64,000 nt of DNA, taken from a virus (taxonomy: Duplodnaviria; Caudoviricetes). The first letter of the stretch is position 1. Each line of letters begins with the position of its first letter. Positions 7,401-59,450 of this stretch are shown here, in pieces. The notes beneath the pieces are model-generated. The model saw only the letters and a program-made list of their open reading frames with translations. It was not told where the DNA came from and made no database searches. The translations under genes were made by a program, and so were the position numbers. The stretch spans positions 54,426 through 118,425 of IMG/VR virus record IMGVR_UViG_3300013121_000009. One strand, given 5' to 3'.

Positions 7401-8321
7401 TCTAATTTGTGGAAATAATTTAGAAAATCTGTCAATAATTGGTTTTATTGCACTTGAGAAAAACTTTTCTGGAGATATTGACTTGTTAATATTTAAGAAA
7501 ATTTTTTCTTCAGATTTTTCATCAATTTTTACTTCATTCCATGTATTTCCGTATTCGTCAGTAATTAATGCTGGGTTATATCCTTGTTTTTTAAGAATGT
7601 TAGTTACAGTGTTCTCATAGAAATTATAAATAGGTTTTAAAGCACCAAATCCTTCTTTTTCAATTCTATCAAGTTCTTGTTTAAGTTGTTTTATTTCATT
7701 ATTAATATCTTCTACATTTTTTAAAGAATCTTTTAAAGAACTTGTAGGGGATGCAGAATAAAAGTTTTCTCTACCATTTATTCTTCTAAATTCATTAGCT
7801 TCTTCTTCAGTATTAAAATAATGTTTTTTATTACCAGTTACCTCACTAACCAACCAAGGTTTATTATTACTTGCAGTTTTCTTTTTTTCTTCAAGTTCTT
7901 TAATCCTATCTTCTTTCTGCTTTTTAAACTCTTCTAAAGTAGTGTGGCCTTCTACTTTACTTGCTGTATTACCACTAGGAAATAATACTTTCTCATATCC
8001 TTTCTTAGCACTATCTTGTATAATAGATTTAACAAAGAATGTAACCCAGTTGTTATCTTTGTTTAGAAGTTGAAGAAATTGGTTTTCTTTAGTTTTAGAA
8101 AGTTCGTCTGCCCATTGCATAGCTTCCTTACCAGTAATTGACCCTTCTTTTTCAGCAGCCTCTAAATCTTTAGTATTAGTTAATAATTGATTAGTTCTAC
8201 CTTTTTGAAATACATCAGATTGTACTTCTAGTATTCTACGAGTTTTAGGTTGTTGACTTTGTAACAACTTAATTAATTCTCCTTCTGTGTATTTTACACC
8301 TTTATATTCGTAACAAGCCAT
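1419..8321 (-). CDS. giant virion cargo/polyvalent protein (half of an ExQSD domain, zincin-like EExxH, PD-(D/E)XK nuclease, long helical C-terminus)
   Basis: 2300 aa; RILEVQSD; EEYLH (7230-7244); GTAVH..EVTL..AGTPDII..IHDFK..QLSAY (~6100-6730); last gene of the cargo cluster as in crAss-like phages. Confidence 0.8.
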   Translation of the reverse strand: MACYEYKGVKYTEGELIKLLQSQQPKTRRILEVQSDVFQKGRTNQLLTNTKDLEAAEKEGSITGKEAMQWADELSKTKENQFLQLLNKDNNWVTFFVKSIIQDSAKKGYEKVLFPSGNTASKVEGHTTLEEFKKQKEDRIKELEEKKKTASNNKPWLVSEVTGNKKHYFNTEEEANEFRRINGRENFYSASPTSSLKDSLKNVEDINNEIKQLKQELDRIEKEGFGALKPIYNFYENTVTNILKKQGYNPALITDEYGNTWNEVKIDEKSEEKIFLNINKSISPEKFFSSAIKPIIDRFSKLFPQIRTRVITEAQISTLPEEIQRQFRAIDKLNKKVISFYHNGNVYLIKERVTQDVAIEEYLHPFVNALEVENSSLYQSLLLEAKQLFPELKDSIFEEYKDVYDSILDLNREFLTQALSRMMSGAIDDEKAKSWWQKFKDWLLSLVERMIGSNPDIQSDIMDLPNMSAQELIKHLMQTGTTINLGDIPSATNFHLSEDQIKNLQDMPKTVSQEESLDSVIDNTNLFDFEAVGHTYSTLDDTGITVPYISVSQKIQVSKFSNIFLEFAEVGTAVHSLLNQLVNQGKPISKINLNEIAEKSDLNKFFGGNKEVSLAILDYIAKYVQALRDKGSIVLTEVTLGDRKAINQIEQNNRVAGTPDIIEILEDGTAIIHDFKNMLPMIADDADNISEKKMDEMYFGFDGQAASKIRQKYFEKQLSAYAKLLELTGIKVVDLQIVPIFIGREKGIQETEDSPISVEIASRNGKPVIQFPIQIDFNPFSNRHSFDKNQLQKYQVKYNKNFADKIIHTPVERPRVKTQLELEGETIENQLKNSENLSKGLEEIFEIIESTIKQYGNSEDEFKRHLFDKFQERSGDFSEDVIKLIRSNIIHIFKNKEKGIDVFRASVVQYLGFIQQISNSLENIRQNQLSLIGKEYEDDFDMLSEWGKLKLLAVSYRPILEEIKLNHLAEVEDSNLFKQMVGKGLDYIDQIERTYEDRTLPVLAKVLNAQFPQEYKDRVARELIDRKQKKQQLLDSLPADDNRRKKIQNDIEKYQEEIESLPSESVIREMIKGELGDSDWFYSNFMANMSNPDYIISASTNILKDSLMDLRFKSIENSERFGREFEKRIKVFGDIRDRIKKMNQDLIYVVSRIDTMTGLEHKQLHLISDIDEHVFYHLDKLTYELNKATKAKDEARKKSDVLAEAKAKIEIDKAKANIKAYKLLHFENKYKDEYYRVLKEIDKDFTDGKRTLNPKEMVDTIFDEIRTIKSGYSTTQYLQGDISQEHAERIIELWRQYSLLFSELHEDGSPKTGIDKEVQQLLLKRRENLKKFRTTKTNIFLWQRLKQNMINDFGEDSREFAEWNARNSRTVLKPEFYEHRDEIFNMIETIMKEYQVGSDNTQERIQAVWKSLFRITAPYKNEGEFTTQIIPEATLKEVKGKELEIDRLKNSIESLGMTDEDKQTLYTLFDALSDLQVRENTEQYYEDYNRELSKFCARKSAETGTTITPNQVNIDPALFNEFKSTPWYSNSHLTIQKNTYKNGNLQVDENMNPIKKDEEIPIYIYRRTVPLDSNYYEEVPSLAYTTSFVNDEWLNPNYKDEFGRPKLKKTSKYYKPSQLEGDDNAGKASYIQLERGTSEKDRVNFENIQFLMKEMQEIQKGLNTSNKLYYAIPSIEKSTWERITDEGVYNTIKGSMRNLYQNAQDYSDGLKDLGLKDRHVLANLSGEETKFIPVRYSQDIDMEDQSYDVFGSILKYQMSATKAKILEKKLAFFETLEGALSSHKVKKEGFVNVVKDKLNKSLNLGLNVSVNSTDSTRLNNIRDLINRIFYDEFKKDLVSVNNMFTFGKTLTDTKIADAINSFAGKNMMFLNIPNWIVNFFSGNLQMLIEATGNQEFNFKEDFKRAKLYLIRPETIRDIVTDAGKTHDKSLFGQMLDFFDPLQGEFENEFGEKEQWSTRRAGAKNLFFFGKNMGEWELQVSTFIAMMNAKKVFKVTNGKRVAISLMDAFEKGDKGLPKIKDGIEYEEGVPLTYEHLKDFTNKIHAINKALNGSYAKFDQSLVEKYSVARLMIFMKKFFIPLFVNRFGMKRFDLEMGTYREGHYKVFIMTFLRDLIMYRQNVIKKLGATLAAPFVKDSSLTEQYTDQQVAAIKKTMIELYMMAGFMMLLLALGYYDDDDDGDAAMFAQYILLRIGHELQTSAPPISLQETYSVLKTPYVAMGSVGNLYNLLTNIIVTPINAVGSTMGYDWFEEDLYYQKDTPLFNKGDSKVVAQFMRALGLKLNITHPKQLLKSYDYMVQIN

Positions 8322-8323
8322 AA

Positions 8324-8809
8324 TTAATTATTGTTTAATTTTTTAAGTTCCCAAGCTTTAATATTAGCTTGTCTACGTTTTTCAATAGTTTCTGGAGATT
8401 GTTTCCTACCTTTTAAAGTATTAGCAATCTTACTTTTAATCTCTTCAGAATGTCCAACTTCTCTATGAAACTTTTTTACAGAATCTGAAATTTTAGATTT
8501 AACTTCTTCTGTATGATTTAAACCCCATCTTCCTTCCACTTTTGAACAAATATTATAATTAGGTTTTAAAGTATCAATATAATATTGTTCTTTTATAGGT
8601 AATTCTTCTTTACTACATTCTTCTATTAAAAACATTGTAAAATTATCTTTATCATATTTATTATAAGAATTTTGAAGATGGGTATTTTTATGAATACCTA
8701 ATCTTAATCTTCTAAAATGGTCAGATTTTCTATTATAGAAATGTGTAGCACTTCCTATATAAAATTTACCATTTGCTTTATTTTCTATTTTATATATTCC
8801 TGTTTTCAT
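8324..8809 (-). CDS. free-standing GIY-YIG homing endonuclease with NUMOD3 repeats
   Basis: MKTGIYKIENKANGKFYIGSA; HTEEVKSKIS/HSEEIKSKIA/QSPETIEKR; start moved to ATG 8809 (TAATG overlap). Confidence 0.92.
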   Translation of the reverse strand: MKTGIYKIENKANGKFYIGSATHFYNRKSDHFRRLRLGIHKNTHLQNSYNKYDKDNFTMFLIEECSKEELPIKEQYYIDTLKPNYNICSKVEGRWGLNHTEEVKSKISDSVKKFHREVGHSEEIKSKIANTLKGRKQSPETIEKRRQANIKAWELKKLNNN

Positions 8810-10191
8810 TATCCGCAAGGTACTTTTTTTATTGTTCCTGAAGCAATTAAATCTTCTAAAAATCCTGTAAAAGGATATTTGTCATCTGAACGAAACCAAC
8901 CAATACCATTATCAGTACTAAACTGTGCATGACCTTTAATAGAAGGTGTAATACCTGGAGTACTTATTTCATTCTCAGTATAATTAGTGCCACCTGGAAC
9001 TGTTAGATTAGAATAATATTGAGTTGGTTGTCCTTTTTCTTGTGATATAATACCTCTATCTGTATAAAACTCACTTTCTTCTGGAGCTATTGATTTAGTT
9101 GCAATAGCAGTATTAATCTCAACAGTATGAGAATAGTTAGCTAAAAGGTTGGTCAATATCTCCTCTCTATTTCTTGTACCAAAAGAAAGGATTAAATCTT
9201 TCTGTTCTTTAGGTATTTGAAGTTCTGTTAGAATTTTATCAATAGACCAACCATTTTTATCTCCTTTTCTAAATGTTTCATCGGCCTCAGGGCTCGATAA
9301 TATTTTTACTGATTTTAATGAATAATCAACATTAAATTGAGTTTTATTTGAAGGATTAAATGATGTTCTATTTTTCCAAATCTTTGAACCATCTTCTGTT
9401 TGAGTATATTTTGGTCCGAGTTTTTCTTTATATTTCATAGAATTTACTACAGGTTTCCCTGTAATATTTGCTATTTTTTGAAGAATTTCTGAGGCTATAC
9501 CTATACCTCTAATTTCGATTGGAAGTTGTATAAAATTTACAACTATTTCAGAACCCATATCTCTTATTATAACTTGGGATTGACCTGTTTCGAAGTCTTC
9601 TGAATTTTCATCTACAATTTGCTCTTTGCCAAGAAAAACATTAACATTCTGATTATCACCAGAAGTTCTTCCTAATTTTACAGTAATATTACTTCTAACT
9701 TTTGGAGTAGGTTTACTAAGATGAAATTGAATTTCCTTAGAGTTTTCTTTCTCAAATCTCCTATTTGTTTCCTTAATAATATCATCAATCTTCTGAACTT
9801 GTTCAGAAATTTCATTCTGAGAACTAGTATCTGAATCACCTTCATCATTGATAAAGTTAACTTCCTTATTAACTGTATTATAAGTATCCTTATATTTTTG
9901 CCAGTAAGTTTCTACCAGAGAGTCAGATGGCTTAATATAGATGTACTGCCCACCAGGGATTTGTCCTCTGGAAGCAATAGCTTCTTTGAAATTTGTATTA
10001 AGTTTTAAAACCATAGACTTGGCATAACCCTGTGCTAAATCTTGCCTTCCTTGAAATTTATCTATAGAAATAAATAAATCATTTCCTAGAGCAATAGCTT
10101 TAGGTTTTCCATCTCTATGTGCATTTATTACTAAATTCTGGGCCTTTTTGATAATCCCTTTTTCTATATCTATTCTACATTTTAAGCTCAT
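8809..10191 (-). CDS. virion cargo protein with GNAT-like domain and N-half of ExQSD domain
   Basis: Likely start ATG 10191 (TAATG overlap, MSLKC); IRGIGIASEIL GNAT motif A; PGGTNYTE...GHAQF..IGWFRSDD near C-terminus. Confidence 0.7.
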   Translation of the reverse strand: MSLKCRIDIEKGIIKKAQNLVINAHRDGKPKAIALGNDLFISIDKFQGRQDLAQGYAKSMVLKLNTNFKEAIASRGQIPGGQYIYIKPSDSLVETYWQKYKDTYNTVNKEVNFINDEGDSDTSSQNEISEQVQKIDDIIKETNRRFEKENSKEIQFHLSKPTPKVRSNITVKLGRTSGDNQNVNVFLGKEQIVDENSEDFETGQSQVIIRDMGSEIVVNFIQLPIEIRGIGIASEILQKIANITGKPVVNSMKYKEKLGPKYTQTEDGSKIWKNRTSFNPSNKTQFNVDYSLKSVKILSSPEADETFRKGDKNGWSIDKILTELQIPKEQKDLILSFGTRNREEILTNLLANYSHTVEINTAIATKSIAPEESEFYTDRGIISQEKGQPTQYYSNLTVPGGTNYTENEISTPGITPSIKGHAQFSTDNGIGWFRSDDKYPFTGFLEDLIASGTIKKVPCG

Positions 10192-13100
10192 TAGCAATTG
10201 TTTTCTTCTGTTAAATCAATTTCAGGTAATCCTTCTGGAGCCGCTAATATACGACTATTTTCTTCATTTTTAGTTTTTAATGCATATAATAATGGAGCTT
10301 CATAATGGAAATCCTTTAAATTCATTAAATATCCTGGAGGGCTTCCAATAATACCTGGAACATTTGGAACAAATTCAAGTTTTACACCAGGTATTTGTGA
10401 CATCCAATTATAGATAGTTCCTGTTTCATAGAATGCTCCAAATTTTTGAAGTACAAAGTTATGGAAAGTTTGGTCTGAAGTACTATTCTTAAGTTCAGCC
10501 TTTACCATTTCTTTCATAGCTTGTAAGGATGGTTCTTGTGTTAACATTGTATGTATTAAACCTAGAGAACCTCTTCTTGTAAGATACTCCTTGAATAATT
10601 GTTTTAATTCTTCATCTGTTCTTGGAATAATTTCTTCTCTACCTGCATACAAAGCAGCGGTTCTTACATTTCCTTGTGTTAATTTAGTAATTTCTGCTCC
10701 AGAAAAATACATAGGTACATCTTTACCAAAAGCTTTAATATGCTCTTGAATAGCTCTTGTAGCCAATGGCATAAAATATTGCTTTTCAAGTTCAAGTCTT
10801 TTATGTTCTTCATAAAGAATACTATTAATATCTTCATTGGCATTCTTAAGATTTTCTTTACTCTGTTCAATTCTCTCATTAGCAACTTTCTCAAAGTATG
10901 CAATTCTAGACTCTATAGAGTTATATTTTTCTACACTTTTGTCATAAGTCTTCTTATCAACTTTATAGAATTCAGTCCGTCCATTTCCAGCATAATATAT
11001 TTCATCATCTTTTTCAAATGCAAATCCTGCTGTACCATCTAGATTTATTGACGAATACTTTTCTTCCAGTGATTTTCCAGATTCGTCTCTAGCTTTTTCA
11101 TAATCTTCTTTAGAAATTTCAGTTGCAACTTCTTTTATTGGGAACATAGGTTGAAGGGAATCTTCTTTTCTAACATATTCATCTAAAGCTTTTTGAGCTT
11201 GAACTGCAACTTGTTCTTTAAGATTAACTTCATTACTTTGGACTACTGCAACAAGTTTTTGAAAAGTTCTTAAATCAACATATTTTAAGAAGTTTTCTTT
11301 AGTCTGTAATAAAGATTGGATTTTATAGTTTCTAACTTGATCCATTTTGAGAGTTGTTAATCTCTTAGTTGGAGCAGCTTGCATTCTTTTTGCTAAAAGA
11401 ATTAACATATATTCTACGTTATCAGATAACATATCAGATAATTCTGTTCCTCCTCTTCTTCTAGGTCTTCTAATAGGTCTTAATGTTAATATTGTATTTT
11501 CATTTCTTTTTTCTGCAACTTCTCCATCCACCATAGTAAGAGTATTGTTTCTATAGAAGTATTCCAAACCTGCATAGTTTTTGTCTACAAAATATTGGAA
11601 CATCTTTTTCTCTATTTTAGCAACTACTGGACTTTGTTCATACATTCTTTTTCTCTGTTCATAAGTTAAATATGGATCATCTTCCCAATCTGAATCCCAG
11701 TTTCTAGAATAATTAATCTTTTGAATTTCTTTACGTAATTCATTCAAATCTTCTTTAGTAAGAATTCTTTTTAAACCACCAGCTTTGAAAAAGTTAAACA
11801 TATCATGTTTTACTTCATATGTCTCATCAATTAATTTAGCAGTTCTAGCAATAGCCATTTCTACTGATTCTCCATAACTTCTTGATAAATCAATTGACTC
11901 CTGAAAGGCAGCTCTTAGAGCTTCGTAAGCTTCTTCAGAACTTCTATATCCACCTAAAGGATGATTTAATTTTTCTTCAATCATTTGATATAAGAAAGAC
12001 TTACTTCTTGATGGTAAAGTTGCATTATAGATGTTAACTTTTGGGGCCTGCGGAGTTAAATTTCCTATATTTTCTTCCTTAATTCTTTCTATTTCTTCTA
12101 TTCTTCTATTTAAGTCAGCTTCAAGGTTAGGAATCTTTGCAGAATCCATTTTCTCTTTATTATCATTTTGTAACTCATGGAATAAAACAGCATCTTTAAC
12201 TTTCGAATCTTTTGAAGAATAAAAATAGGTTAAGTTTACCCAAGAGTTAGGTGCAAGATTAAAGTGACCTCCGCCTTTGAATACAGTATCATTGAATCTT
12301 AAACTTATTTTATTATGATAAATTTCTCTTTTTCCAGCTAATCCTAATTCTGCAATTAATTGGTCTCTTCTTTCAACTGTTATATTTCCAGCTTGTACCT
12401 CTGCTTCAATTTGAGCCATGTCGTAGTTCTTACTTGATACTCTATCTGGAACATTGATAAATGTTTGGTCAACTCTATAGCTTAGATACTTTTGCTCTTT
12501 GGCAAAACCTAATACATAGTTTAATTTTAAGAAATTATGAACTTCATTAACAAACTCTTCACCTGTTATACTTTTCAGAGAAGGATTTTCTTTTTTAATT
12601 AAGTCAATTATTGATTTGTATATATTAAGCTCTTCCTTTTTAACTCCATCTAATTTAAATTCTTGACTTAAAACTATAGGGTGTTTTCTAAATTTCTCTA
12701 AAATCTTAGGAAGACCTCTTAAAGCAGGTGATATCCCATTAATATATTCATTATTTCTTTTGAGGTCTTCTATTTCAGAAGGTGTAAGTTTTCTAGTAAT
12801 TCCTACTGAAGTTCCTTGTTTTACTGTCCATACTTCTGGATACCATTGTGCCCTGAAGTTTTTTGAATCTGCAATATCATAGAATCTTTTTATAGTTTTC
12901 TTTAAGAATTTAGTCTTAAGTTTAAATTGATTATTAAATAAACTATCTAAAAACTTCTTAGAGCTTTCTACTTCTATAACTTTTTTATTAGGATTTACTT
13001 CATCTTCATCTAATACTTCATCTGAGAAATAAACCTTTTTATTTAATTCTCTATATTCTTCTGGAGTCATTAAATCTGTCATATCTCCTGAGAGAATCTT

Positions 13101-22100: not shown

Positions 22101-22619
22101 AATAGCAACCTTGATTACTCTATTATATAATTTCTTTAAAATTTCTAGAATTTTATCAGAAAAACCTTTAAATCCAGCCTGAAGTTTTGACAAAGATGAT
22201 GCAACATACTCTTCTTTAGTTTGCCCTTCTTTATCAGCTTCTTCTTGAAGAATTTTTATTTCTTCATCTGATAACTCTTCATTGATTGCATCAGAAATTG
22301 TTTCATTTATTTTTTCTTCATTAGCCTTTTCTTCATCCTTTGGGGGATTAATTTCGTTAAAAAGTTGTTTAATTTCATTAATCTCAGCTTTAATTTCAGC
22401 TACTCTAATATCTATTTGTTCCTGAGAAAGCTCATCAGATATTGCTGGTATTTTCAAACTTTCTTTCAAAGAATTTAATTTATCTTCCAACTTTGAATGG
22501 TTTTCTTGTATAAGTGAGCTAGCAAGAACTTTTTGTTCTTGTTCACTCATTCCATCTTTGTAAAGTTTTTCAAACTCTTTCTCTAGGCTTGTACCTTTAA
22601 AACAACTTCTTACTGACAT
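10191..22619 (-). CDS. crAss-like virion RNA polymerase polyprotein with YkuD-like and zincin domains
   Basis: YRIPTQ...SGSDFDIDKL (DFDID 16563-16577) and TDGQG, as in phi14:2 gp66-type single-chain RNAPs; HEAWH 20802-20816; FH..SMGC YkuD-like ~21498-21953; EEAAH 13407-13421. Confidence 0.92.
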   Translation of the reverse strand: MSVRSCFKGTSLEKEFEKLYKDGMSEQEQKVLASSLIQENHSKLEDKLNSLKESLKIPAISDELSQEQIDIRVAEIKAEINEIKQLFNEINPPKDEEKANEEKINETISDAINEELSDEEIKILQEEADKEGQTKEEYVASSLSKLQAGFKGFSDKILEILKKLYNRVIKVAIIGAISFSSVSAVSIQTANFNNAQTIEIITNETLNFDNLNKLHKQKYGDRDYVVVNKKQRNVTIFKADGRIVYSGDIVIGKNKGDIRKSDELAKIGYSQEEYEIAKLKITPAGVYQAKKAEDKDYGAKYKWVLQGTGVYRENTGETSYIGFHANLKVREQLLRDSDPTNNAASMGCMGINKEIFSSIENQLTDDVSFYILPEVGSIESYSEYLRNYFSAENVKTYADWLNNKSPEIVIKTLDDRIASLKKALSNILGSSSQALAGLYLLVARIRTKKEKGEEITEEDILELKNRLNELEKELQLLEPKISNKSIIKQEEIQEPTSESLVISTDNSTLTEKENIIPDKSEVSKRKKALQDKIKGTKLESSKKQVPVPSLKVTNTDIEEVKRIFGDVNVQNLAEIVNSSAWATWSASAITLYKGATRADLFHEAWHHFSQLYLTKDEKKKLYDETREKVSKLKNASDLEVEEFIARDFSKFDQTGKILGDYPVRKSIFEKIWAFLKSLFGSKDVSLDTLYKTLKKGDFQGRVPSTDNIYFSNLNSDISPAFSSRDYTKIINGVEAIVTEVLYSKGYTTLDIKKIKKLDSLYGLVKDYIEYLKLERIEAIGEEAAKTDPIIANQQRILDNWGDNNNKGVKDAHLAQSKTISNISKDFDIEEDGTFVYKDPESNQFENKGRDSYNDNVASEQSFYDYTDPNIVRMIESISIPGYLDPEFGLPRLIDARKIIGILTRNLSGVKNLYGSNGQLAIMEALSKKYPEIKIIMDRLLAGSSSSAFNMKARFLATFSRPSTPLKIMFIDKNWDEDGMAGELEFKDSPITNLNKEKIHANLRSQFLLTKPTKFISNNADGETVINYDEKTINEIENFKGSALEFYRNLGIPITLELLNKSGLASQMGYVKEHIVLWLKREASRKSGNPIKDIYQVLGTDIGYDDALTFNWDTQKKWDRTSSVKSFVTRLLTAYDKYEDSYISNSVRNADGKTEYEQTMWNRIHTVMGILNDTKNYPSLQSIIQIPGFEHYKGFLNNKGFLDMRNSQLLSYYFNRDGSRKDVEPIAIHNYNGMASERNPGSETEGDKTKSLYIGDKVLMDAHYLVNHNIYPTIQLGDKSMFYAFGLKGPLVRNSQEFKLAMEGYLRDELAIMVSHRDGNPELTKLVKLSGNIKNEEGYQFGIFRDIVSEVPGLREALLEAKNIDDIDRVIAKNQADIDTSINIFLNKEVAKHIKYMKDKGVWKHVTGTENQKDNFIRKYITNQIAFNIESSKLIFGNTFFYNDPHKRVAGGSATGTIPTTDEQLLKDFEDLSQVTQRGLMKASFKEITGAEFPKISQREASSRITRFIVFDDIKPKSAYLEHYVELVDVQLRKENLSDSRRAQLMAVRDTIIKAYSSVNETDGQGAITLDFFRKMQMLSGRWDDRMQEAYMKAIQWDMLNRKINNLEQRNETVSQELRDQLIKNELNEEEISYFQPQKLQYFGNIKNDVIQEIGFHKFSVFPIIPQAVAGTNWEKHMERMVIEDADYALFKSGDKAETQKPDQFYDIDLEARIPHTIHSLLDTYSQDKGTYSVREGFLDNIKEQVKISPEIDTRLIFGTQFRKLLFDTFDEGETTPELKEAFTKYKSLIQELTDIERESIFKVASITKDAGGNYNIHDKVKFIDFIKKEIEKKVINKNILKTFELLPSGEFKNRLDVSLQRSVIDSIIQAVLNKRLVRQKTRGEMKIQVSSTGWEKFGSSQSTSLENGTNDLRTYYYKAGDTLIRKSQIKVALSGEFKKLLKREIDGEPIGTLERLNSLIAQGRIDSQSLTIVGYRIPTQEHNSMEVMEIKEFLPERAGSIIIVPTEMTAKSGSDFDIDKLNTFMPNIDNEGNYITRKFQTKNEAEIPMLQAMDELKKAKTRIKEEKRVLTNYAFSERAKIKQKIFDRISELKNDLAVHRREKRNLIDEIELNELFKEKNKIYAEMMQLFDEWKTIRKESDNQKFTISQEIRNFLKVNNASFLKAIFDEYTDLSEETPFYDIKNKLLQDYNDRVITMLDILKAIDDRITLSSIIKAKNFEKEELEKYVSNTFTVDGRKTKIKAVKEIPEISELYERIWGYSFDLSEELNEFRQKAQKAEWDFFNYKGSLENEIIRVAEEVILRPDNLLNLITPNSTYLFDELIDRLIRINNPELVDKQTEKVNTDVKLTKMFSPTVNEDKADSLYQGKDSLGIAAQANTFTKLLAEANVKISAEYLEKNLILFNGLRDSEGNISLAKSKLLNGVSKATAISQLINLYVDIANNPKSGYVNIGTSTAPVLFLGLHMGLPIKNIVFLLNQPIIKKYVIAKQELESKSITKRFNPIHEALKYVGLPTDESSPFISMEGTLHRAGTNPGALLESEVLNKYLGKSNQYFIGNKNEAQVQALYLWQFIAMEGIASDFREAQSSVNFDTAMTKSSFNAYRREKDYQAVQDKRMLINFDKIKNHSIVSIFDTSDFSSEIANKVLPILNSPQLNDRIYKEMEDRKGSDLPKRLHEAYERTFKNDFVHFIFQNFLKNSDEGMKYFESQFGSFSKFESDPVAFGKELLFKLYLELGELKSKYPKLKEMYSIIDNLVISTSNQNSEMSDKIKNIALIYFNKDIQLQNDYIDQFEELENNPDTQEFMKKFAFLSFFQSGLNKTPISSTDVINPEVISRLLDYAVNEYEKLSINEKANALNSFTELFYANNNKFRGKGQRKVSGNLTRVESMRYKDYSLDTAPEKGFRREKIIDDVDIERFNRLPDKPREFFTAASFLKEFGKNKKAPHNSSWIRNANGYYDLVSKETGEIYIENVDLKTGYKMDMNTPREQLFGLDTEDDTQMEFHINTLNAVSNFLQELGIPERLVPDIIDQNGTVVGDAIAAANFIDMTVDIVDNLETRPEAWNKLPEEAAHFWYRLLRKDSVLSRLLWNSATSTKKAEELIKTKYGELFNYNNFSTLKEEAIGQLVAEAIHRIQEKHGSPADYSFLKKFVEWINNLLARFKALRNDPFEVAAMKILSGDMTDLMTPEEYRELNKKVYFSDEVLDEDEVNPNKKVIEVESSKKFLDSLFNNQFKLKTKFLKKTIKRFYDIADSKNFRAQWYPEVWTVKQGTSVGITRKLTPSEIEDLKRNNEYINGISPALRGLPKILEKFRKHPIVLSQEFKLDGVKKEELNIYKSIIDLIKKENPSLKSITGEEFVNEVHNFLKLNYVLGFAKEQKYLSYRVDQTFINVPDRVSSKNYDMAQIEAEVQAGNITVERRDQLIAELGLAGKREIYHNKISLRFNDTVFKGGGHFNLAPNSWVNLTYFYSSKDSKVKDAVLFHELQNDNKEKMDSAKIPNLEADLNRRIEEIERIKEENIGNLTPQAPKVNIYNATLPSRSKSFLYQMIEEKLNHPLGGYRSSEEAYEALRAAFQESIDLSRSYGESVEMAIARTAKLIDETYEVKHDMFNFFKAGGLKRILTKEDLNELRKEIQKINYSRNWDSDWEDDPYLTYEQRKRMYEQSPVVAKIEKKMFQYFVDKNYAGLEYFYRNNTLTMVDGEVAEKRNENTILTLRPIRRPRRRGGTELSDMLSDNVEYMLILLAKRMQAAPTKRLTTLKMDQVRNYKIQSLLQTKENFLKYVDLRTFQKLVAVVQSNEVNLKEQVAVQAQKALDEYVRKEDSLQPMFPIKEVATEISKEDYEKARDESGKSLEEKYSSINLDGTAGFAFEKDDEIYYAGNGRTEFYKVDKKTYDKSVEKYNSIESRIAYFEKVANERIEQSKENLKNANEDINSILYEEHKRLELEKQYFMPLATRAIQEHIKAFGKDVPMYFSGAEITKLTQGNVRTAALYAGREEIIPRTDEELKQLFKEYLTRRGSLGLIHTMLTQEPSLQAMKEMVKAELKNSTSDQTFHNFVLQKFGAFYETGTIYNWMSQIPGVKLEFVPNVPGIIGSPPGYLMNLKDFHYEAPLLYALKTKNEENSRILAAPEGLPEIDLTEENNC

Positions 22620-23299
22620 TATTGTTTATTTATCATTAAAAACATCCTTATTATTAGATAAACTTCGTCATCGTCATCTAACTTTTTAACCTTTCTTATT
22701 ATTAATATTCCTGGAAATTTAATATCTTCAGAAACTTCACTAATTTTCTCTACTATTTTAGCTTCTTCACTACCTAGTAAATCATCTACTAATATAACAC
22801 TATCTTCTATATTTTTGTATATTTCCTTTATTAATTGTTCGTTAACATTTAGGTAATCTTCTTTTAATAAATTAATACTCTTAAAAGTTTCTTCCGATAG
22901 TATTATTATATCTAGTTTCGAAAGGCCAATTTCTTTAGAAATTTCATCAGTAGTATTAATTGTTTCATCCTTATTTAAACTAATTGACTTACTATCTGAA
23001 TCTGTTAATGTTACAAAGTCCGAAAATACTTTTTCTAGAAACTTTGAATCATTATCAGTAGTCGTTATTGAATCATTTTTAGATAATCCTATTGATTTTA
23101 TTAAAATATCTGAAAAACTTACTGAATCATTTAAAGTTAATGTATAATTATTTATAACTACAGGAAAAAGAAAAGGAACTGGTTCTCCATTAATATAATA
23201 TGTTATAGTTCCCGTATCACTATTACTATTATAAACTCCTCTAACTGGTTCACCATTAATGTAATAGGTTAGATTTCCTGTGTCATATTGTGCTGCCAT
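22619..23299 (-). CDS. hypothetical structural protein with 18-aa repeats
   Basis: TYYINGEPV twice; about six 18-aa D-x6-D-x3-K repeats. Confidence 0.65.
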   Translation of the reverse strand: MAAQYDTGNLTYYINGEPVRGVYNSNSDTGTITYYINGEPVPFLFPVVINNYTLTLNDSVSFSDILIKSIGLSKNDSITTTDNDSKFLEKVFSDFVTLTDSDSKSISLNKDETINTTDEISKEIGLSKLDIIILSEETFKSINLLKEDYLNVNEQLIKEIYKNIEDSVILVDDLLGSEEAKIVEKISEVSEDIKFPGILIIRKVKKLDDDDEVYLIIRMFLMINKQ

Positions 23300-23361
23300 T
23301 AGCTTAAGTTACTATTTGTTTTTTCTTTCCATCTACACAGTTAAATATCATTTCTTTAGTT

Positions 23362-25860
23362 TTATGTGACTGAAATAGAGTCGATATTAATCCAGCCAGT
23401 ACTGCCATCACAATCTACATAAAATTCCATACCAACATTATCCGTAACAGCACTTGGTAATGTATAAGATAATGTCTCCCAAGCTCCATTAGCAGCATTG
23501 GTGGCTGTTGCGGCTACTATGTCAGAATTATAAGCAGATGCATGTGCTGATGGATTTGCCTTTAAAATCAACCTTGGCTGATTTCCATTATAAGCAGTTC
23601 CATCTCCTATTACAGATTTTCTTACCTTGATAGATATTGTCGCTGTTGTTCCATTGGCTACTGCTACTTGAAAACTACTGCTACTTAATTTATATGAAGC
23701 TGAGTTAGGAGTTAATCTCTGGCTCACAGAAGCAGAATCATAGATTGTAGAGTCATTGGATATAGTGCCGTCTCTCTTAATTACCCTATGAACACCAGCC
23801 GAATTAAATCGTTGGAACCTCAAAGCATTTGTTGGTGACATTTGAGCTAAGTTAGATATAAGGGTACCTGTTGATATCGTACAATTTCTAAACGTAGCAT
23901 TAGAAGAAGCCGCTTGATAAAATTGATTTCCCATACCTATAACACTTGAGCTATATGAAGATGTACCTCCTAAGTTACAGTTATCAAATATTACATCCTT
24001 AACAAGTGTCCCAAATACAACTCCAGTATTCCCACCTTGTCCAGAACAGTTCTTAAAAGTAATATCTTCCCCTACCATTATGGAAAAATGAAATGTATTA
24101 CTAAAACTTGTAACGGTATCAAAAATTACATTCCTTGGTGGTAAGCTTGAATAACTCCAAGGGGCAAGATTTATACTTGTGCCATTGTTCCAAAAAGTAG
24201 AATTTGAAAATGTGGTAACGGTAGCTGTTGAATAACTGTTTATAAAACAACTCACATACATTCCCGTAGTAAGACTATATGCTGTATTACCAGATATTGT
24301 CCCTTCAATAACTCCTCCAAATAAATACCCACAACTACCACCTGCGACAGTGTTATTAATTAAATTAAGGAATATCCTTGTTGTTGCGTAAGTTGCAGCA
24401 AGAGTTTCTATGTTTATCATACCTGGGTTGATACCTTGTCGTTGCCCCATAAAACAATTATTTTGTATGGTGACATAATGTGTTTGAGTAACCAATGGTT
24501 GATATACAAGTATATGAGTATTTGGGGTACCATACGCTACACAACCATCTATAGTAACTCCTCCGTTAAAATTGGATATAACTACCCCATAACTATAACC
24601 AGCATAAAAATCCATAAATACACAGTCCTTTAAATTCGCTGAACCCGTTGGTGCTTGTATTATAAGTTCTATTCCTCTTTTACCACCCGCAGACGAACCC
24701 AAGTATCTAAACTCTATATTATCACAATCTACTGTAGCTTTATTGTAGGCAATAATGTAATATGTGTTAACAGTGCTTGTCCCGTATATCTGAAAATTAG
24801 ATGTAAGGTTTATGATATCAGCTTGTATACCTGTAGTGGCATTACCTCCGTGTGCATAAGTTAAAGCGGCTATTGTCAAGGTTGTTCCAGTAGCGGTAGC
24901 TGATAGATTCTTTACTTCATTGCCAGATGAATAAGCGGTATTTGGAAGTCCTATTGTATCTCCACTTAACCAAGCTGTAGAAACATCGGTAGTAAGAGAA
25001 GTAGCACCAGCAGATGCATCAGCAGCTAATTTAGCCTTTCTTGTTTTGGCAGTTCCATATGCTCTGAATGTTCCATAATTCCTTATAATTATTCCAGTAT
25101 TTACTGCCGTAGAAGATGTAACTGTAAACACAAATGAAGAAGTAGAAGGTAACCTTGTTCCTGTACTTGAAAATTCCACTATTCCATTATGGGAAACTAT
25201 AAAATTCTTTGTATTATTTACAGCTAATTTATATGCTGTTGAAGCTGAATTTTGACCAAGTATCTTCCCATAAGCTCCAACCTCTATTAACCCATAAGAA
25301 GTGGCTGCTGTGTTATCAAAAGTTACTGTATTAATAGCTGTAGTAGCTGCTGCTGTAATATCCCCACAAATTATGATATCATCTGAAGCCGCTAATGAAG
25401 CAGTAGTTGAAGTAACTAACCCTCTTGACCAGTTACCTGCTGTTGCATTTCTATATACAGTTACAGTTCCAGCAACTGAAGATAATACTCTTACCTGATA
25501 GTTGGTAGCAGCAAGAAGAGCTTGAGGAGCTGCAAATTTAAAGTAACACCATCCCCCATCATAGGTTGTGTCATTGTTTATGATATCTGTAGCGTTACAG
25601 GTAACTACATCAACTTGAGCTAATGAAGTACTATTCCATAATTGAACAGAAAATGTTCCTGTAGGAGATGTAGTAGTTCCTTTTACTCTTAGTAATATCC
25701 CTTCTACTGTAATTGCCCCTGGCATAAAGTTAGCACTGGCAACATAGGATGTTGTAGTAGCTGTAGAACCTGCTTCACTATACAAATAGGATGTAGTATC
25801 TACTACTTTCCAAGATGAAGAAGACCAATTAACAGAGGAGCCAGAGAATAGTGTTGCCAT
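23362..25860 (-). CDS. tail spike/fibre-like protein with probable beta-helix (pectin-lyase-like) region
   Basis: 832 aa, T/S/G/A/N-rich, repeated TFxNC/IxNN beta-helix-like rungs, C-terminal beta-sandwich-like segment. Confidence 0.6.
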   Translation of the reverse strand: MATLFSGSSVNWSSSSWKVVDTTSYLYSEAGSTATTTSYVASANFMPGAITVEGILLRVKGTTTSPTGTFSVQLWNSTSLAQVDVVTCNATDIINNDTTYDGGWCYFKFAAPQALLAATNYQVRVLSSVAGTVTVYRNATAGNWSRGLVTSTTASLAASDDIIICGDITAAATTAINTVTFDNTAATSYGLIEVGAYGKILGQNSASTAYKLAVNNTKNFIVSHNGIVEFSSTGTRLPSTSSFVFTVTSSTAVNTGIIIRNYGTFRAYGTAKTRKAKLAADASAGATSLTTDVSTAWLSGDTIGLPNTAYSSGNEVKNLSATATGTTLTIAALTYAHGGNATTGIQADIINLTSNFQIYGTSTVNTYYIIAYNKATVDCDNIEFRYLGSSAGGKRGIELIIQAPTGSANLKDCVFMDFYAGYSYGVVISNFNGGVTIDGCVAYGTPNTHILVYQPLVTQTHYVTIQNNCFMGQRQGINPGMINIETLAATYATTRIFLNLINNTVAGGSCGYLFGGVIEGTISGNTAYSLTTGMYVSCFINSYSTATVTTFSNSTFWNNGTSINLAPWSYSSLPPRNVIFDTVTSFSNTFHFSIMVGEDITFKNCSGQGGNTGVVFGTLVKDVIFDNCNLGGTSSYSSSVIGMGNQFYQAASSNATFRNCTISTGTLISNLAQMSPTNALRFQRFNSAGVHRVIKRDGTISNDSTIYDSASVSQRLTPNSASYKLSSSSFQVAVANGTTATISIKVRKSVIGDGTAYNGNQPRLILKANPSAHASAYNSDIVAATATNAANGAWETLSYTLPSAVTDNVGMEFYVDCDGSTGWINIDSISVT

Positions 25861-25866
25861 AAGTTA

Positions 25867-26076
25867 TTAAATACTTTCTAATAGGTATTGATTTTTGTAA
25901 AACAAGCAAGAAATTACCTTCTCGTTTTCAATACGTTCCTGTAAGGTATCAGTTACTCCAAACTGTTTGTCTATTCTAACTATAGGCATTATTCCTTCAT
26001 CATCTATAAGAACGAAAGTGGTGAAGAGTATATCTCCTTCTTGTTGGTCATTGATTTGTTCTACCTGATATGCCAT
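25867..26076 (-). CDS. hypothetical protein
   Basis: Likely start ATG 26076 (MAYQ); fills the gap between neighbours. Confidence 0.6.
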   Translation of the reverse strand: MAYQVEQINDQQEGDILFTTFVLIDDEGIMPIVRIDKQFGVTDTLQERIENEKVISCLFYKNQYLLESI

Positions 26077-26084
26077 ATTAAAAA

Positions 26085-26576
26085 TTAAGAGATAGTGAGT
26101 GTCCACGTAATTACTATAGAATCTCCTGCTGCTTTATTTACTACACTAAAAGAAGCAGACATCCACATATTTACAGTATTAGCTGTAACTACATCAAATG
26201 TACCTGCTTCTGTAATAGCTCCAGTACCAGTTCCTGCTGGAAAAGTTGCAACTACAGTTACTACTGCATTATTTCTTGTTTTAGAATCAAATGCTACTCT
26301 AGCTACTTCTGTTCCTAAAAGAGTTGCTGCTGGAGAACCTGTTCCAATTGCCATCCATCCCATTTTATCTAGAGTAGGAGCTCCAAGAATTTGATCTGCA
26401 ATCCCATATTTACCTGCTGTAGTCACAGTATTATGAACGAATCTTTCATCTTTTTGATTTCCATTTTCATCTAATAATTGAATATGCATATTCACATCAA
26501 AATAGAGTCCTTCTGCAAATCCTTTTCCTGTTTTTAACCCAATAGAATCTTGAGCCTGAGTTTTGTCATATATCAT
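26085..26576 (-). CDS. phage structural protein (fibre-base-like beta-sandwich)
   Basis: NTVTTAG...MAIGTG...GAITEAGTF...NKAAGDSIVITW, a pattern common in phage fibre-associated proteins. Confidence 0.6.
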   Translation of the reverse strand: MIYDKTQAQDSIGLKTGKGFAEGLYFDVNMHIQLLDENGNQKDERFVHNTVTTAGKYGIADQILGAPTLDKMGWMAIGTGSPAATLLGTEVARVAFDSKTRNNAVVTVVATFPAGTGTGAITEAGTFDVVTANTVNMWMSASFSVVNKAAGDSIVITWTLTIS

Positions 26577-26926
26577 AATTGTTTTGCTTTTACTTTTTTA
26601 ATGGTTCCATCGAAACCCCTTTCGACTGTAAATTCCCACTCCCTTTCTTTATTTAATGATTTACCTAGAGATTGTACTTCTTCCAGGTTGAGTTGTAGCA
26701 AATCTACGATTTTTTTAGTTTCCTGTGTATTGTCAATAGGTTTTATTTGTGTTAAGTTTTTAGATATAGAATCCAGTCTTAGTCCTAGTTGTTCCAGGAG
26801 AGGTTTAATAGGATCTTCCTTTTGTACAGATTTAAGTATAGAATTAAATATAGACTTTAGTTCTTCATGTCTTTGTTTCTCTAAAGCAAGGTCAAATTCT
26901 CTATCATCAACTTCTATTTCTGCCAT
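26573..26926 (-). CDS. hypothetical coiled-coil protein
   Basis: Likely start ATG 26926 (MAEIEV); C-terminal WEFTVERGFDGTIKKVKA. Confidence 0.65.
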   Translation of the reverse strand: MAEIEVDDREFDLALEKQRHEELKSIFNSILKSVQKEDPIKPLLEQLGLRLDSISKNLTQIKPIDNTQETKKIVDLLQLNLEEVQSLGKSLNKEREWEFTVERGFDGTIKKVKAKQL

Positions 26927-29900
26927 ATACAATTAATTATATCTTCTAATTCTTTTGCTTTTCTTTTAATCTCTTCTTGTTGGTCAGCAACTGTAGCATC
27001 TTGCTTCTCAATTGATTTTCCTTTATTTGTAATAACGACTTTTTCAGTAGCTTTTTTACTTAAAGTTTGGGTATCTTCTATTAAATTAAGTGATAATTCT
27101 GGTCTAGGTGTTTCTTCTTCCTGTTTCTCTGGAGTTACAACTTCAGTAGAAATAGTAGGAACTTCTTCATCGAATTCACCAGGTTTTAGAGTTTCATACT
27201 CTATAGCTCTAGATAAAGGTGACATTACCATGTTAGGATTTCCATCCTTAGTATCTGGTAACATTAACTTAATTTTAGTAGATGGTTCTGCTGTTTCAAT
27301 CCACCATTTTAAGTAAGCATCCTGAGTTTTTAGTGGTAGATATTCTAATCCATCCTTGCCTTCTCGAATAGCATCAACTGGGTTGATTGCTATATTAGTT
27401 CTTAATCCAGACAATATTTCCTGAAGACTATTTTTATCAATTGAATTTAAAGCTGATACTTCTTTTCCAGATACTTTCTTGTTTTTTGTTACTAGAAAAA
27501 CATTCTTAATTTTCCATCCTTCCTGAGTAGCTGAAGTAAATATCTTAAACTGTCCTATTACTTTTCCATTCTTCATTCTGGATATAGAAATAAATGGAGC
27601 TTTTCCTTTTCCGTGTTCTTGGAATGCCATCTGGACACTAAGAGTTTCTCCTTTCCCTACATTAATATTTGAATTGTTATAGATAATAGACTCCAAGAAT
27701 TTCTGTACATCTTCTGGGTTAACTTTAGATTTATTATTAATAATATTTTCAAACTCTTTAATTATCTTAGTAATTACTTCCATATGACTAGTTTTTGACA
27801 AATCTTTGGCTAGTAATGGAATTCTTAAATAAGGTATTGATTCCACACCTTCTTCAAAAGTATCTGATCCATTTTTTACTAATAGATAAGGGAAACCTTT
27901 CATAATAGGAACTCCACCTTCAACTCCTTGAATTTGAGGACCATAACCTGGAACTTCAAAGTCTATAAAGTCTGATAATGTTCCATCAGCTTTAAAAATA
28001 GTTCCTGGTATTAATGGACTAGATGCCGTCTTAGCATAGAATTTAAATTTACCATTTGTAATTCTTTTTATCTGTACATTAATTATATGAGTAGGATTAG
28101 CATTTAAATAAGCTCTTGATTCTAAATCTCTTACAGTATGAGCAAAATAATTACCCTTATCATTAACTTCATAACCTGAACCGTTCCAGAATAATTTTAT
28201 AGGCTCAGTTGTATCTTTCTTAACAGCTACTAGAACTTGACCTCTTTTTTGTGGATCATTATTCCAATATTCTTCTTGAAATAGTTGATTTTCTCCAAAG
28301 AATCTTTCATCTGGAACCATAAGAATAAACTCAATGTTATTAGCTAACATGAATTCAGGAAGTGTTTCAGAACCTGGTCTTGTAAAGAAGTTAAGTATTT
28401 TCTGAAATCTCAAATAAGCTGGAGCTAATTTTTCTCCTTTATCTCTAGAATCTGTAAAGATAGTTGCTGGACCTTTTGTAGTTGCACCTGAGGTAGCTGT
28501 TGGGATATCGTTTTCTTCCTTAATTATCTTTTCTTCTTCTTGAGCTTGGTCTACCTCTTCAAGACTTTCTGTAGGTTCTTCTATACTTTCTGGAACTATT
28601 ACAACTTCTGGTACATCTTCAACTGGAGCTTCTTCTTCTGGACTTTCAACTTTTATTTCAGTTGGTATATCTCTTCCTTCAATTAAATCAGCTCTAAGTT
28701 GAGCTAATTCTTCCATGTTTTTCTGATGTTCCTTAATATTTTCTTCAGTGACTTTAATTTTTTCTTCTAAATCTTTTATCTTACTTTCATGTTCTACTTT
28801 TTCCTCTGGAGTTAGAGTATCTATATTAATAGCTTTTAATTCATCTAAAGCTGTTTTTTGTGCATCTAAATCAGCTTCATTTTCACTTATTAGTGTTTCA
28901 ATTGCTGATATTTGTTTTGCCAAACTGTCTATAGATTCTTCTTTATAATTTTTTAGAACTGAGTATCTTGCTTCTCTTATTCTTTTTAAATAAGCACTAT
29001 TATGTGCTTTATAAGTAGTAATATACTTATCTAAAAATTCTTTTTGTCCTTCTGAAGTCTGGAGTCTTTTATTAGCATCTAGAAATAAACTTAAAGCATG
29101 ATTCATTAGATTTAAATCTGCTAAACCATTAATAATTTCATCTACTTGACTTTTTAGTAAAGGTTTATCATAACCTTTATTTTTAAGTTCATTTTCAAGA
29201 ATATGAGAAATAATATTTTTATAGGCAGCAACTGATTTTGGACTTGATTCATCTCCTGCTGCTTTAACTGTTTCATAAACTTTAATTCTATTATTTGTTT
29301 CAGTTATAAATTCACGTAAATCTTTAATTTTAGTTTTTAGTAAATCTCTTTCCTTTATTTGTTTATCTAAAATTTCTTGGTTAAATAAATGTGAGTCTTT
29401 CTTAGCTTCTTGAATTGATTTTGCCAGAATATTATATCTATCTATTGCTGAACTAAGTTCATTTTCTTTATTTGCAAAATGATTGTTTATTTTTTCAATA
29501 TTTATAATATCTCCTACAAGGTCTTGCATAAATGGATATTTATCTATAATATCCTGAATATCTGCTGGAATTCTTGAATTCAAATCCTCCATATATGACA
29601 TTCCATGTGCCATTGTTGTTTTTAAGTCCTGGAATGCTGTCCATCTTAAAAAGTCTTTTGCAGGATTAAGTTCTGTTGTCAATGAATTATTAACTAATTC
29701 TACAGTGTTTTTTATGTGTTTAGCTTTTTGTATAATATTATCTACATATGAATCTATATTACCATATAAATCATTTTTTTCATCTTCAGTAAGACCATCT
29801 GTAGAAACATTCATTAACTTCATAAATTCTTCTGGAGCTAATTCTTTGAATGTATTCAATTTTTCTAGGGCTGCTTCAAATTTATTCAACTTAACAGCAG

Positions 29901-55502: not shown

Positions 55503-56036
55503 TTAGCAACAATCACAAGATTTTTGAATTATTCTCGCTAATTCAGTATTAGTAACTTTAAAGCATTGATCTTGACTTTCCGTAGTTCCACAATCTCCAC
55601 AGTCAATATATTCCACTAAATAGTAAGGAGTATCCTTATCTAATTCTTGTAATGAGAAACTTATTGCTCCTTGAAGAGTGCCTGCAAATAATTCTGCATC
55701 ATCCGTATCAAATATTTTATAGGATTTTGCACAACCAACTGGAGTTGGACCTGAAGAAGAGAAGAATGTATATGCAGGTAGTCCTAGTACTGTAGTTGCT
55801 CTATGAAGTTTTACAGATGCTTGAGGTACAATACATAAATCAGATGAAGCATTACAAACCTTTTGGTCAATCTTTACCAGTATTTCATCTAATCTATCAC
55901 CATAATCTACTTCAACACAATTTAAACCTTCTCCATAATATTTTACACATCCTGCTGATATAATTTCTTTACAAGCAGTACATGAACCTGATGGAGGGCA
56001 ACTAGATATAGTTATTGTTTTACACTTTTTTGCCAT
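55503..56036 (-). CDS. Cys-rich fibre-associated structural protein
   Basis: Shares C..CVKYxGE..C N-terminal module with the 471- and 406-aa ORFs. Confidence 0.55.
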   Translation of the reverse strand: MAKKCKTITISSCPPSGSCTACKEIISAGCVKYYGEGLNCVEVDYGDRLDEILVKIDQKVCNASSDLCIVPQASVKLHRATTVLGLPAYTFFSSSGPTPVGCAKSYKIFDTDDAELFAGTLQGAISFSLQELDKDTPYYLVEYIDCGDCGTTESQDQCFKVTNTELARIIQKSCDCC

Positions 56037-59195: not shown

Positions 59196-59450
59196 TTAAT
59201 AGTTTTTAATTATTTCTGCATATTTACATGGATACTTATTAAAGACAGCTATCTGCGATCTAACTATAGCTTTCTTATTATTTACATTTGGAGATTTATC
59301 TTCATTTAGTTTTTTCAATAAATTATTAAGAAAATCTAAAGTCATTGTACAATTCTCATTTTTTGATAACTTGTAACATTGTGAGCATTTTCCAGAAATT
59401 AAATTGCATCCACATCCAACATCAGTGTTACATGAAATACATCTAGCCAT
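59196..59450 (-). CDS. small Cys-rich protein
   Basis: Likely start ATG 59450; CISC..GCGC..CSQC. Confidence 0.6.
   Translation of the reverse strand: MARCISCNTDVGCGCNLISGKCSQCYKLSKNENCTMTLDFLNNLLKKLNEDKSPNVNNKKAIVRSQIAVFNKYPCKYAEIIKNY

Follow-up and report, generated by a model that had tools for sequence, protein, structure and literature searches.

How do crassviruses pack several megadaltons of giant proteins and deliver them in a set order? This question is raised by the cargo genes in the right-hand 64 kb of the 118,425-bp virus record IMGVR_UViG_3300013121_000009 (Duplodnaviria; Caudoviricetes; 31% G+C; estimated completeness 97%). Four proteins encoded in this 64,000-nucleotide stretch, hereafter the window, are a 1574-amino-acid (aa) protein, a 4142-aa virion RNA polymerase (vRNAP), a 460-aa protein and a 2300-aa protein, referred to below as links 1 to 4. 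They are nearly devoid of cysteine, and the few cysteines that they hold are so placed that the C-terminal tip of each link and the N-terminal tip of the next carry one each. If these pairs were disulfide-bonded, a covalent, reducible head-to-tail chain would provide a concrete mechanism for both the packing of the cargo and its order of delivery.

Cysteine positions in the cargo proteins

Together, the four links contain eight cysteines in 8476 residues (positions in Table 1). As the original prediction, made from the letters of this stretch, had claimed, six of the eight sit at the six inner termini, no more than six residues from the end, and the two outer termini have none. Since the 1574-aa protein lacks an N-terminal cysteine and the 2300-aa protein a C-terminal one, these two form the outer ends of the chain. 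Were eight cysteines placed at random, six or more would be terminal with a probability of 9e-13; when the termini are given the 1.5% cysteine of the phage's other proteins, P = 1e-4. Of the two cysteines that remain, Cys348 of the vRNAP belongs to an S-x-G-C motif (SMGC, residues 345-348) inside a match to Pfam YkuD (PF03734, residues 223-353; 26.4 bits against a cut-off of 23.4), and Cys1496 of the 2300-aa protein is internal and not conserved. Depletion of cysteine reaches beyond the chain, since four proteins encoded upstream also have none; the eight cargo proteins as a set hold eight cysteines in 12,614 residues, as against 1.5% in the remaining open reading frames (ORFs).

The 4142-aa protein is a two-barrel vRNAP with a DFDxD catalytic motif. 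It matches phi14:2 gp66 (PDB 6VR4) with E 2e-16, and its DFDID motif (D2015, D2017, D2019) is invariant in 37 homologues (alignment A1), in which C4142 is near-invariant as well. The giant proteins that flank it are homologous to polymerase-associated proteins of relatives, whether split or fused. Judged by these matches, the four links are the conserved RNA-polymerase cargo block of Crassvirales, which other lineages encode as two, three or four proteins.

All relevant genes of the block are on the minus strand. In order of transcription they encode proteins of 1815, 460 and 924 aa, a 259-aa GIY-YIG endonuclease and proteins of 939 and 1574 aa, followed by proteins of 117, 163, 832 and 226 aa, the 4142-aa vRNAP, the 460-aa link 3, a 161-aa GIY-YIG endonuclease and the 2300-aa protein. 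The earlier supposition that the paired termini face each other on the DNA does not apply to all of them, since four ORFs come after the 1574-aa gene and an endonuclease gene comes before the 2300-aa gene. Despite this lack of adjacency the 1574-aa protein is link 1, because its first ~700 aa match the N-terminal region of fused vRNAPs of 3764-4777 aa, and the window vRNAP matches further along these same chains.

The terminal-cysteine rule in relatives

Among 120 vRNAP homologues from the protein database (23-39% identity), cysteine accounts for 239 of 473,965 residues (0.05%). A cysteine occurs within the last 10 residues in 110 of these proteins and at position 3-6 in 46, 45 of which also have the C-terminal one. 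The same placement was found in 165 complete giant proteins from 82 non-identical IMG/VR loci, where 207 of 241 cysteines (86%; 413,073 residues) lie no more than 10 residues from an end, the terminal positions being confined to residues 3-6 at the N-terminus and to -1 to -9 at the C-terminus. Along each chain, the first protein carries a C-terminal cysteine only, the middle proteins carry both and the last an N-terminal one only, so that the outer chain ends never carry cysteine. Chains of two (n = 10), three (n = 25) and four links (n = 7) add up to 5388-8424 residues, against 8476 in the four-link chain of the window, and small extra links of 169-328 aa have exactly two cysteines, one per tip. 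The 2300-aa protein matches 65 of the locus proteins and the 1574-aa protein 24, colinearly with the fused forms. At 20-35% protein identity, 127 different junction sequences keep both cysteines, and the relatives that obey the rule range from sea water to the human gut. The terminal-cysteine rule is real, strongly conserved and widespread in Crassvirales.

It had also been predicted that a C-terminal cysteine would co-occur with an N-terminal cysteine in the next protein and that the pair would vanish in fused homologues, and both expectations held. Adjacent proteins had both cysteines in 121 cases and neither in 123, with 7 + 5 discordant (Fisher 9e-57, where such values count related sequences and not independent events). 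For pairs in which both proteins are at least 400 aa long the counts were 98 both, 49 neither and 2 and 0 discordant, and at complete upstream junctions of the vRNAP they were 45, 11 and 0. Most of the 12 discordant pairs have an endonuclease gene between the partners, as in the window, and in one the cysteine is set back by 19 residues from the end. On a tree of the vRNAP core of the 120 homologues, the state of the N-terminal cysteine changes at least eight times and that of the C-terminal cysteine at least five; on the locus tree the upstream junction changes three times, both sides together each time.

The pair is absent from the fused forms checked. Fused link 1-vRNAP proteins have a C-terminal cysteine only, and the link-1 region, present in 35 of the 74 homologues that lack an N-terminal cysteine, the closest relative (P0002) among them, occurs in none of the 46 that have one. 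At the other end of the polymerase, seven of the 10 homologues without a C-terminal cysteine continue into fused regions of the 2300-aa protein, one of them (P0031) together with the 460-aa region. In the homologue P0046 the polymerase continues into a fused 460-aa region, and its tail is that of link 3 of the window. In four loci (L001-L004) the last giant protein begins with the equivalent of link 3, and the corresponding site has no cysteine. Links 3 and 4 are separated at a point between GWFRSDDKY and KTRRILEVQSD, blocks that are two residues apart in the uninterrupted protein of L001; in the window each half has gained a peptide of 19-25 residues with a cysteine, and an endonuclease gene lies between them. 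Split inteins were also considered. These comprise an N-intein of ~100 aa that starts with Cys and a C-intein that ends in Asn before Cys, Ser or Thr, and they were ruled out, since the 0-8 residues after the C-terminal cysteine and the 2-5 before the N-terminal one leave no room for an intein.

Cultured crassviruses have the same layout (Table 1). The three proteins of phi14:2, namely gp076, gp077 (the crystallised polymerase) and gp078, are virion proteins; these GenBank tags correspond to gp65-gp66-gp67, gp66 being PDB 6VR4. Both phi14:2 and crAss001 resemble the window in having a homologous vRNAP with a DFDID site and the same arrangement of terminal cysteines. However, they have three links, whereas the window has four, with foreign genes after link 1 and an endonuclease in the last junction; packing and ejection of the cargo are known for phi14:2 and crAss001 only. 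Since gp47 of crAss001 is encoded on the opposite strand, the terminal-cysteine rule is a property of the proteins and not of the gene junctions. A DNA-level motif or translational coupling was rejected on account of that strand and of the four genes between link 1 and the vRNAP in the window. In crAss001 the cargo comprises gp45, gp46, gp47, gp49 and gp50, for which partial unfolding during extrusion has been proposed, and its order is 'likely controlled by packing and mutual interactions' (PMC10172136). Tail hub and ring proteins are joined by disulfides in the particles of crAss001 (PMC10172136). According to the preprint on gp66, virions carry all three proteins, some phages have them as a fusion, and gp66 was purified in DTT (dithiothreitol) (10.1101/2020.03.07.982082). 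Cysteines in the cargo are mentioned in neither of these two papers, from which the word 'cysteine' itself is absent.

In crAss002 and crAssphage ZA (p-crAssphage-type), the upstream giant ends with a cysteine at the second-last residue. Their polymerases fit the rule if translation begins at an internal Met-Ser-Cys, 21-32 residues downstream of the start given in the annotation; to judge from this match, the internal Met is probably the correct start in both. For annotation, the rule thus flags probable wrong starts in the GenBank crAss002 and p-crAssphage-type genomes; it also finds chain members that are not adjacent or lie on opposite strands, and separates split from fused forms.

Proposed disulfide joining of the links and competing explanations

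What might the paired cysteines do? We consider it likely, though well short of certain, that within the particle the two cysteines of a junction bond as a disulfide between chains, so that the links are connected head to tail. At every cut in the block a cysteine is present among the last few residues of the preceding link and at residues 3-6 of the following one, and the disulfides would re-join the links into one unbranched thread of ~8500 residues. Since the bond would lie no more than ~7 residues from a chain end, the joint would be hardly thicker than one extended chain and could travel through the portal and tail behind the link ahead of it. A cysteine-free interior would prevent wrong pairs and let the proteins unfold, and the reducing cytoplasm would separate the links. 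We infer the disulfide by analogy with the A4 structure described below, and likewise propose threading as one unit and release by reduction. It is conceivable, at a more tentative level, that the disulfide-joined links are one translocation substrate in which each link pulls in the next, unfolded, so that the chain itself sets the order of entry, and that reduction serves both as release and as the switch that frees the polymerase.

A bond of this kind has been seen once. In the cryo-EM (electron cryomicroscopy) structure of the pre-ejectosome of cyanopodophage A4, a disulfide connects gp27 Cys1715 to gp26 Cys5; within a pentameric ring, a cleft of gp26 accommodates the C-terminal helix of gp27, and the bond 'further stabilises' the contact (PMC12002296). 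We found in the genome of this phage (Anabaena phage A-4L) that these are the sole cysteines of gp27 (1717 aa) and gp26 (1114 aa), whose genes are adjacent, that of gp27 upstream. As in the window, a sole or nearly sole cysteine lies near the C-terminus of one protein and another at residues 3-6 of the next. The window proteins show no homology to A4 gp27 or gp26 (best BLASTP E 0.23), and the resemblance is therefore one of layout and not of descent. A4, of the Saffermanviridae, differs in that one bond joins just two proteins and a polymerase is lacking, and its description gives no general rule and no link to gene splitting or fusion (PMC12002296). The window chain may accordingly be viewed as a multi-link, polymerase-containing variant of the bond seen in this unrelated podophage. 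The interpretation given in the original prediction is supported in part.

Cysteine suppression has been described in the Schitoviridae ejection proteins (N4 gp50, DEV gp71-gp73), where it was ascribed to passage through the envelope and periplasm (PMC11445570). Like the window, these phages have a giant virion RNA polymerase and companions that are nearly cysteine-free; unlike it, they suppress cysteine totally, with no terminal cysteines and no pairing, and their polymerase is of a different family. The belief that nothing of the kind had been described must be qualified: our literature search found no account of a terminal-cysteine chain in Crassvirales, but a head-to-tail disulfide is known from A4 and cysteine suppression from Schitoviridae.

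An alternative with some claim to attention, although we think it rather unlikely, is that the disulfides are static rivets that stabilise a pre-ejectosome or cargo core within the capsid and fix a 1:1:1 stoichiometry, as has been proposed for A4, the proteins leaving singly once the core has been disassembled. The stabilising role given to the A4 bond would fit such rivets, as would the mass spectrometry of crAss001, which suggests similar copy numbers for the three RNAP-associated proteins (PMC10172136). A rivet could, however, sit anywhere on the surface of a protein, and it would leave unexplained why 207 of 241 cysteines lie near a chain end and why links of only 169 aa keep both cysteine tips.

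The terminal peptides might instead dock non-covalently, with the cysteines serving a shared metal site or packing and no disulfide being formed. Assembly in a reducing cytoplasm would agree with this explanation, and the N-terminal cysteines are embedded in longer conserved motifs that suggest folded docking elements. Nevertheless, we regard it as improbable. One cysteine per peptide would provide only two thiol ligands to a metal, and no conserved His or further Cys was found near the junction cysteines; the near-total purging of other cysteines is better explained by thiol pairing, and the identical signature in A4 is a disulfide. A complex prediction that combined the C-terminal 250 aa of the vRNAP with the full-length 460-aa protein, each with its own alignment (A1/A2), scored 0.02 with the fold of the partner uncertain, and speaks neither for nor against binding.

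The original prediction had gone further and taken the peptides for docking tags specific to each junction, which now appears doubtful. Locus L005 has closely paralogous N-terminal peptides at two separate junctions, and C-terminal tails that resemble each other are found at junctions of more than one type. One family of head peptides, with Cys3, two Tyr ~4 and ~9 residues later and an acidic helix, recurs at different junction types (L005:760-8496, L005:10631-16633, L084:18705-22661 and window 8250-8321), even twice in one phage, which suggests a portable clasp and not junction-specific tags. Added to the reading of the links as a single translocation substrate, such tail and head peptides might act as a covalent substitute for an intein, without splicing, and a homing endonuclease gene or any other break could then split a giant cargo gene without loss of function.

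A further possibility concerns topology. Cysteine counts alone cannot tell head-to-tail joining from an arrangement in which, in chains of three or more links, each middle link is closed by a bond between its own N- and C-terminus and the two outer links pair with each other. We hold this to be very improbable: the two-link chains (10 loci) allow head-to-tail joining only, a new split places the pair at two new ends that were neighbours in the uninterrupted protein, and the A4 bond runs from a C-terminus to the next N-terminus. Least credible of all, to the point of being negligible, is that the terminal cysteines are functionless, whether by chance, as neutral residues at floppy ends or as footprints of homing-endonuclease cassettes, since endonuclease genes are present at some cargo junctions (window, L005, L084) but absent from most, outer ends never carry cysteine, the window retains P = 1e-4 with background cysteine at its ends and the 127 diverged junction sequences keep both residues.

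Several points weigh against joining by disulfides. Direct evidence for the bond exists in no crassvirus. The cytoplasm in which particles are assembled is reducing, and crassviruses of the gut live in the absence of oxygen, so that the time and manner of oxidation present a difficulty. The phage genome has no match to thioredoxin or glutaredoxin, and the search with an Erv1 thiol oxidase model says nothing either way, since the model was silent in every control genome. The Intestiviridae polymerases (crAss002, crAssphage ZA) keep 7-8 internal cysteines, and the paralogous head peptides at different junctions of L005 leave the order of the links unexplained. Finally, tests of independent pairs were all in the expected direction but underpowered (p 0.25-0.5); conservation, in which 127 junction sequences keep both cysteines and nearly all other cysteines have been purged, is a stronger argument than the tree tests.

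Inserted genes and neighbouring cargo

Coordinates of the genes discussed here and above are collected in Table 1.

Table 1. Chain members, inserted genes and neighbouring cargo genes of the window, with the corresponding proteins of cultured crassviruses; codon positions of cysteines are in brackets
Feature	Coordinates	Strand	Cysteines	Remarks
Link 1, 1574 aa	31638-26914	-	Cys1570 only (26929-26931)	Tail INCIWQK
Link 2, vRNAP, 4142 aa	22619-10191	-	Cys6 (22602-22604), Cys348 (21576-21578), Cys4142, final residue (10194-10196)	Start MSVRSC, end EENNC
Link 3, 460 aa	10191-8809	-	Cys5 (10177-10179), Cys459 (8815-8817)	ATG start; start MSLKC, end KVPCG
Link 4, 2300 aa	8321-1419	-	Cys3 (8313-8315), Cys1496 (3834-3836)	Start MAC
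GIY-YIG homing endonuclease, 161 aa	8809-8324	-		PHROG 314, E 1.5e-31; precisely at the link 3/link 4 break
ORF, 117 aa	26926-26573	-		Pfam CENP-Q match, sub-threshold
ORF, 163 aa	26576-26085	-		PHROG 5417, function unknown
ORF, 832 aa	25860-23362	-	13 Cys	Unlike its neighbours in cysteine content
ORF, 226 aa	23299-22619	-		No family match
Second GIY-YIG homing endonuclease, 259 aa	35236-34457	-		PHROG 314, E 4.4e-32; interrupts the upstream Cys-free genes
Upstream Cys-free proteins, 939, 924, 460 and 1815 aa	31635..45007	-	0 in 4138 residues	
Cys-free protein, 924 aa	35355-38129	-	0	Phage tail lysozyme domain PF18013, E 1e-32
phi14:2 gp078, 1797 aa			Cys1797 only	
phi14:2 gp077, 2180 aa			Cys3, Cys2179	
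phi14:2 gp076			Cys3 only	
crAss001 gp47, 2341 aa			Cys2339 only	
crAss001 gp50, 2412 aa			Cys5, Cys1334, Cys2404	
crAss001 gp49			Cys5 only	
crAssphage ZA polymerase gene	L088:16095-28370			Doubtful start (ATT)
crAss002 gp33, polymerase gene	L089:15966-28703			Doubtful start

The block of four ORFs (117, 163, 832 and 226 aa) that separates the link 1 gene from the vRNAP gene (22619..26926) has a homologue in none of 84 related loci, and these ORFs are not members of the chain. The cysteine-rich 832-aa protein may be an external (fibre or receptor-binding) protein. PHROGs and Pfam gave no family for it, for the 226-aa protein, for the 1574-aa protein or for the 460-aa link 3. In the 2300-aa protein, on which PHROGs was not run, Pfam gave no family, including none for the zincin-like protease domain of a gp65-type link, for which no profile-level search was made. 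Megablast of window positions 8000-12000 against the phage collection returned no match.

Both GIY-YIG endonucleases of the window are related to those at the cargo junctions of L005 and L008 (33-48% identity), and a homologue of the 161-aa one sits at the matching break in these two loci. The split ribonucleotide reductase of Aeromonas phage Aeh1 is a gene broken by a free-standing homing endonuclease gene. As in Aeh1, a GIY-YIG gene of the window lies in the break of a conserved block and both halves have been kept; unlike Aeh1, each half has an added cysteine-tipped peptide, which suggests covalent re-joining and not plain reassembly.

A stretch of 159 aa that is 90% identical between L005 and L082 was at first read as a recent insertion of an endonuclease cassette. 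This was rejected, since what the two loci share is a P-loop accessory domain that has been exchanged, and the proteins flanking it are only ~22% identical. The domain (GHPTIGKS) occurs at L005:8510-10030, L082:17018-23938 and L002:9263-17689 with 80-90% identity, in cargo proteins that are otherwise ~22% identical, as though distant crass-like phages had swapped it as an accessory module.

The four upstream cysteine-free proteins are probably further ejected cargo that lies outside the cysteine chain, and the 924-aa one, with its lysozyme domain, is probably an ejected peptidoglycan hydrolase. In six other loci (L012, L013, L015, L017, L020, L026) the ORF just upstream of link 1 is likewise cysteine-free and has a recurring motif, Asp/Asn, Pro, any residue, Ala/Gln and Leu, a few residues from its C-terminus. 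This motif, which the 939-aa protein of the window lacks, may serve as a further signal for docking or processing. The structural region, very unlike the cargo genes, contains small cysteine-rich ORFs, one of 177 aa with 15 Cys (55503-56036, minus strand) and one of 84 aa with 8 Cys (59196-59450, minus strand). The YkuD-like L,D-transpeptidase domain lies within the vRNAP in the window (21576-22000, minus strand), and in L084 a similar region, with 28% identity to vRNAP residues 224-374, is part of a separate 628-aa ORF of the cargo block (L084:16817-18703).

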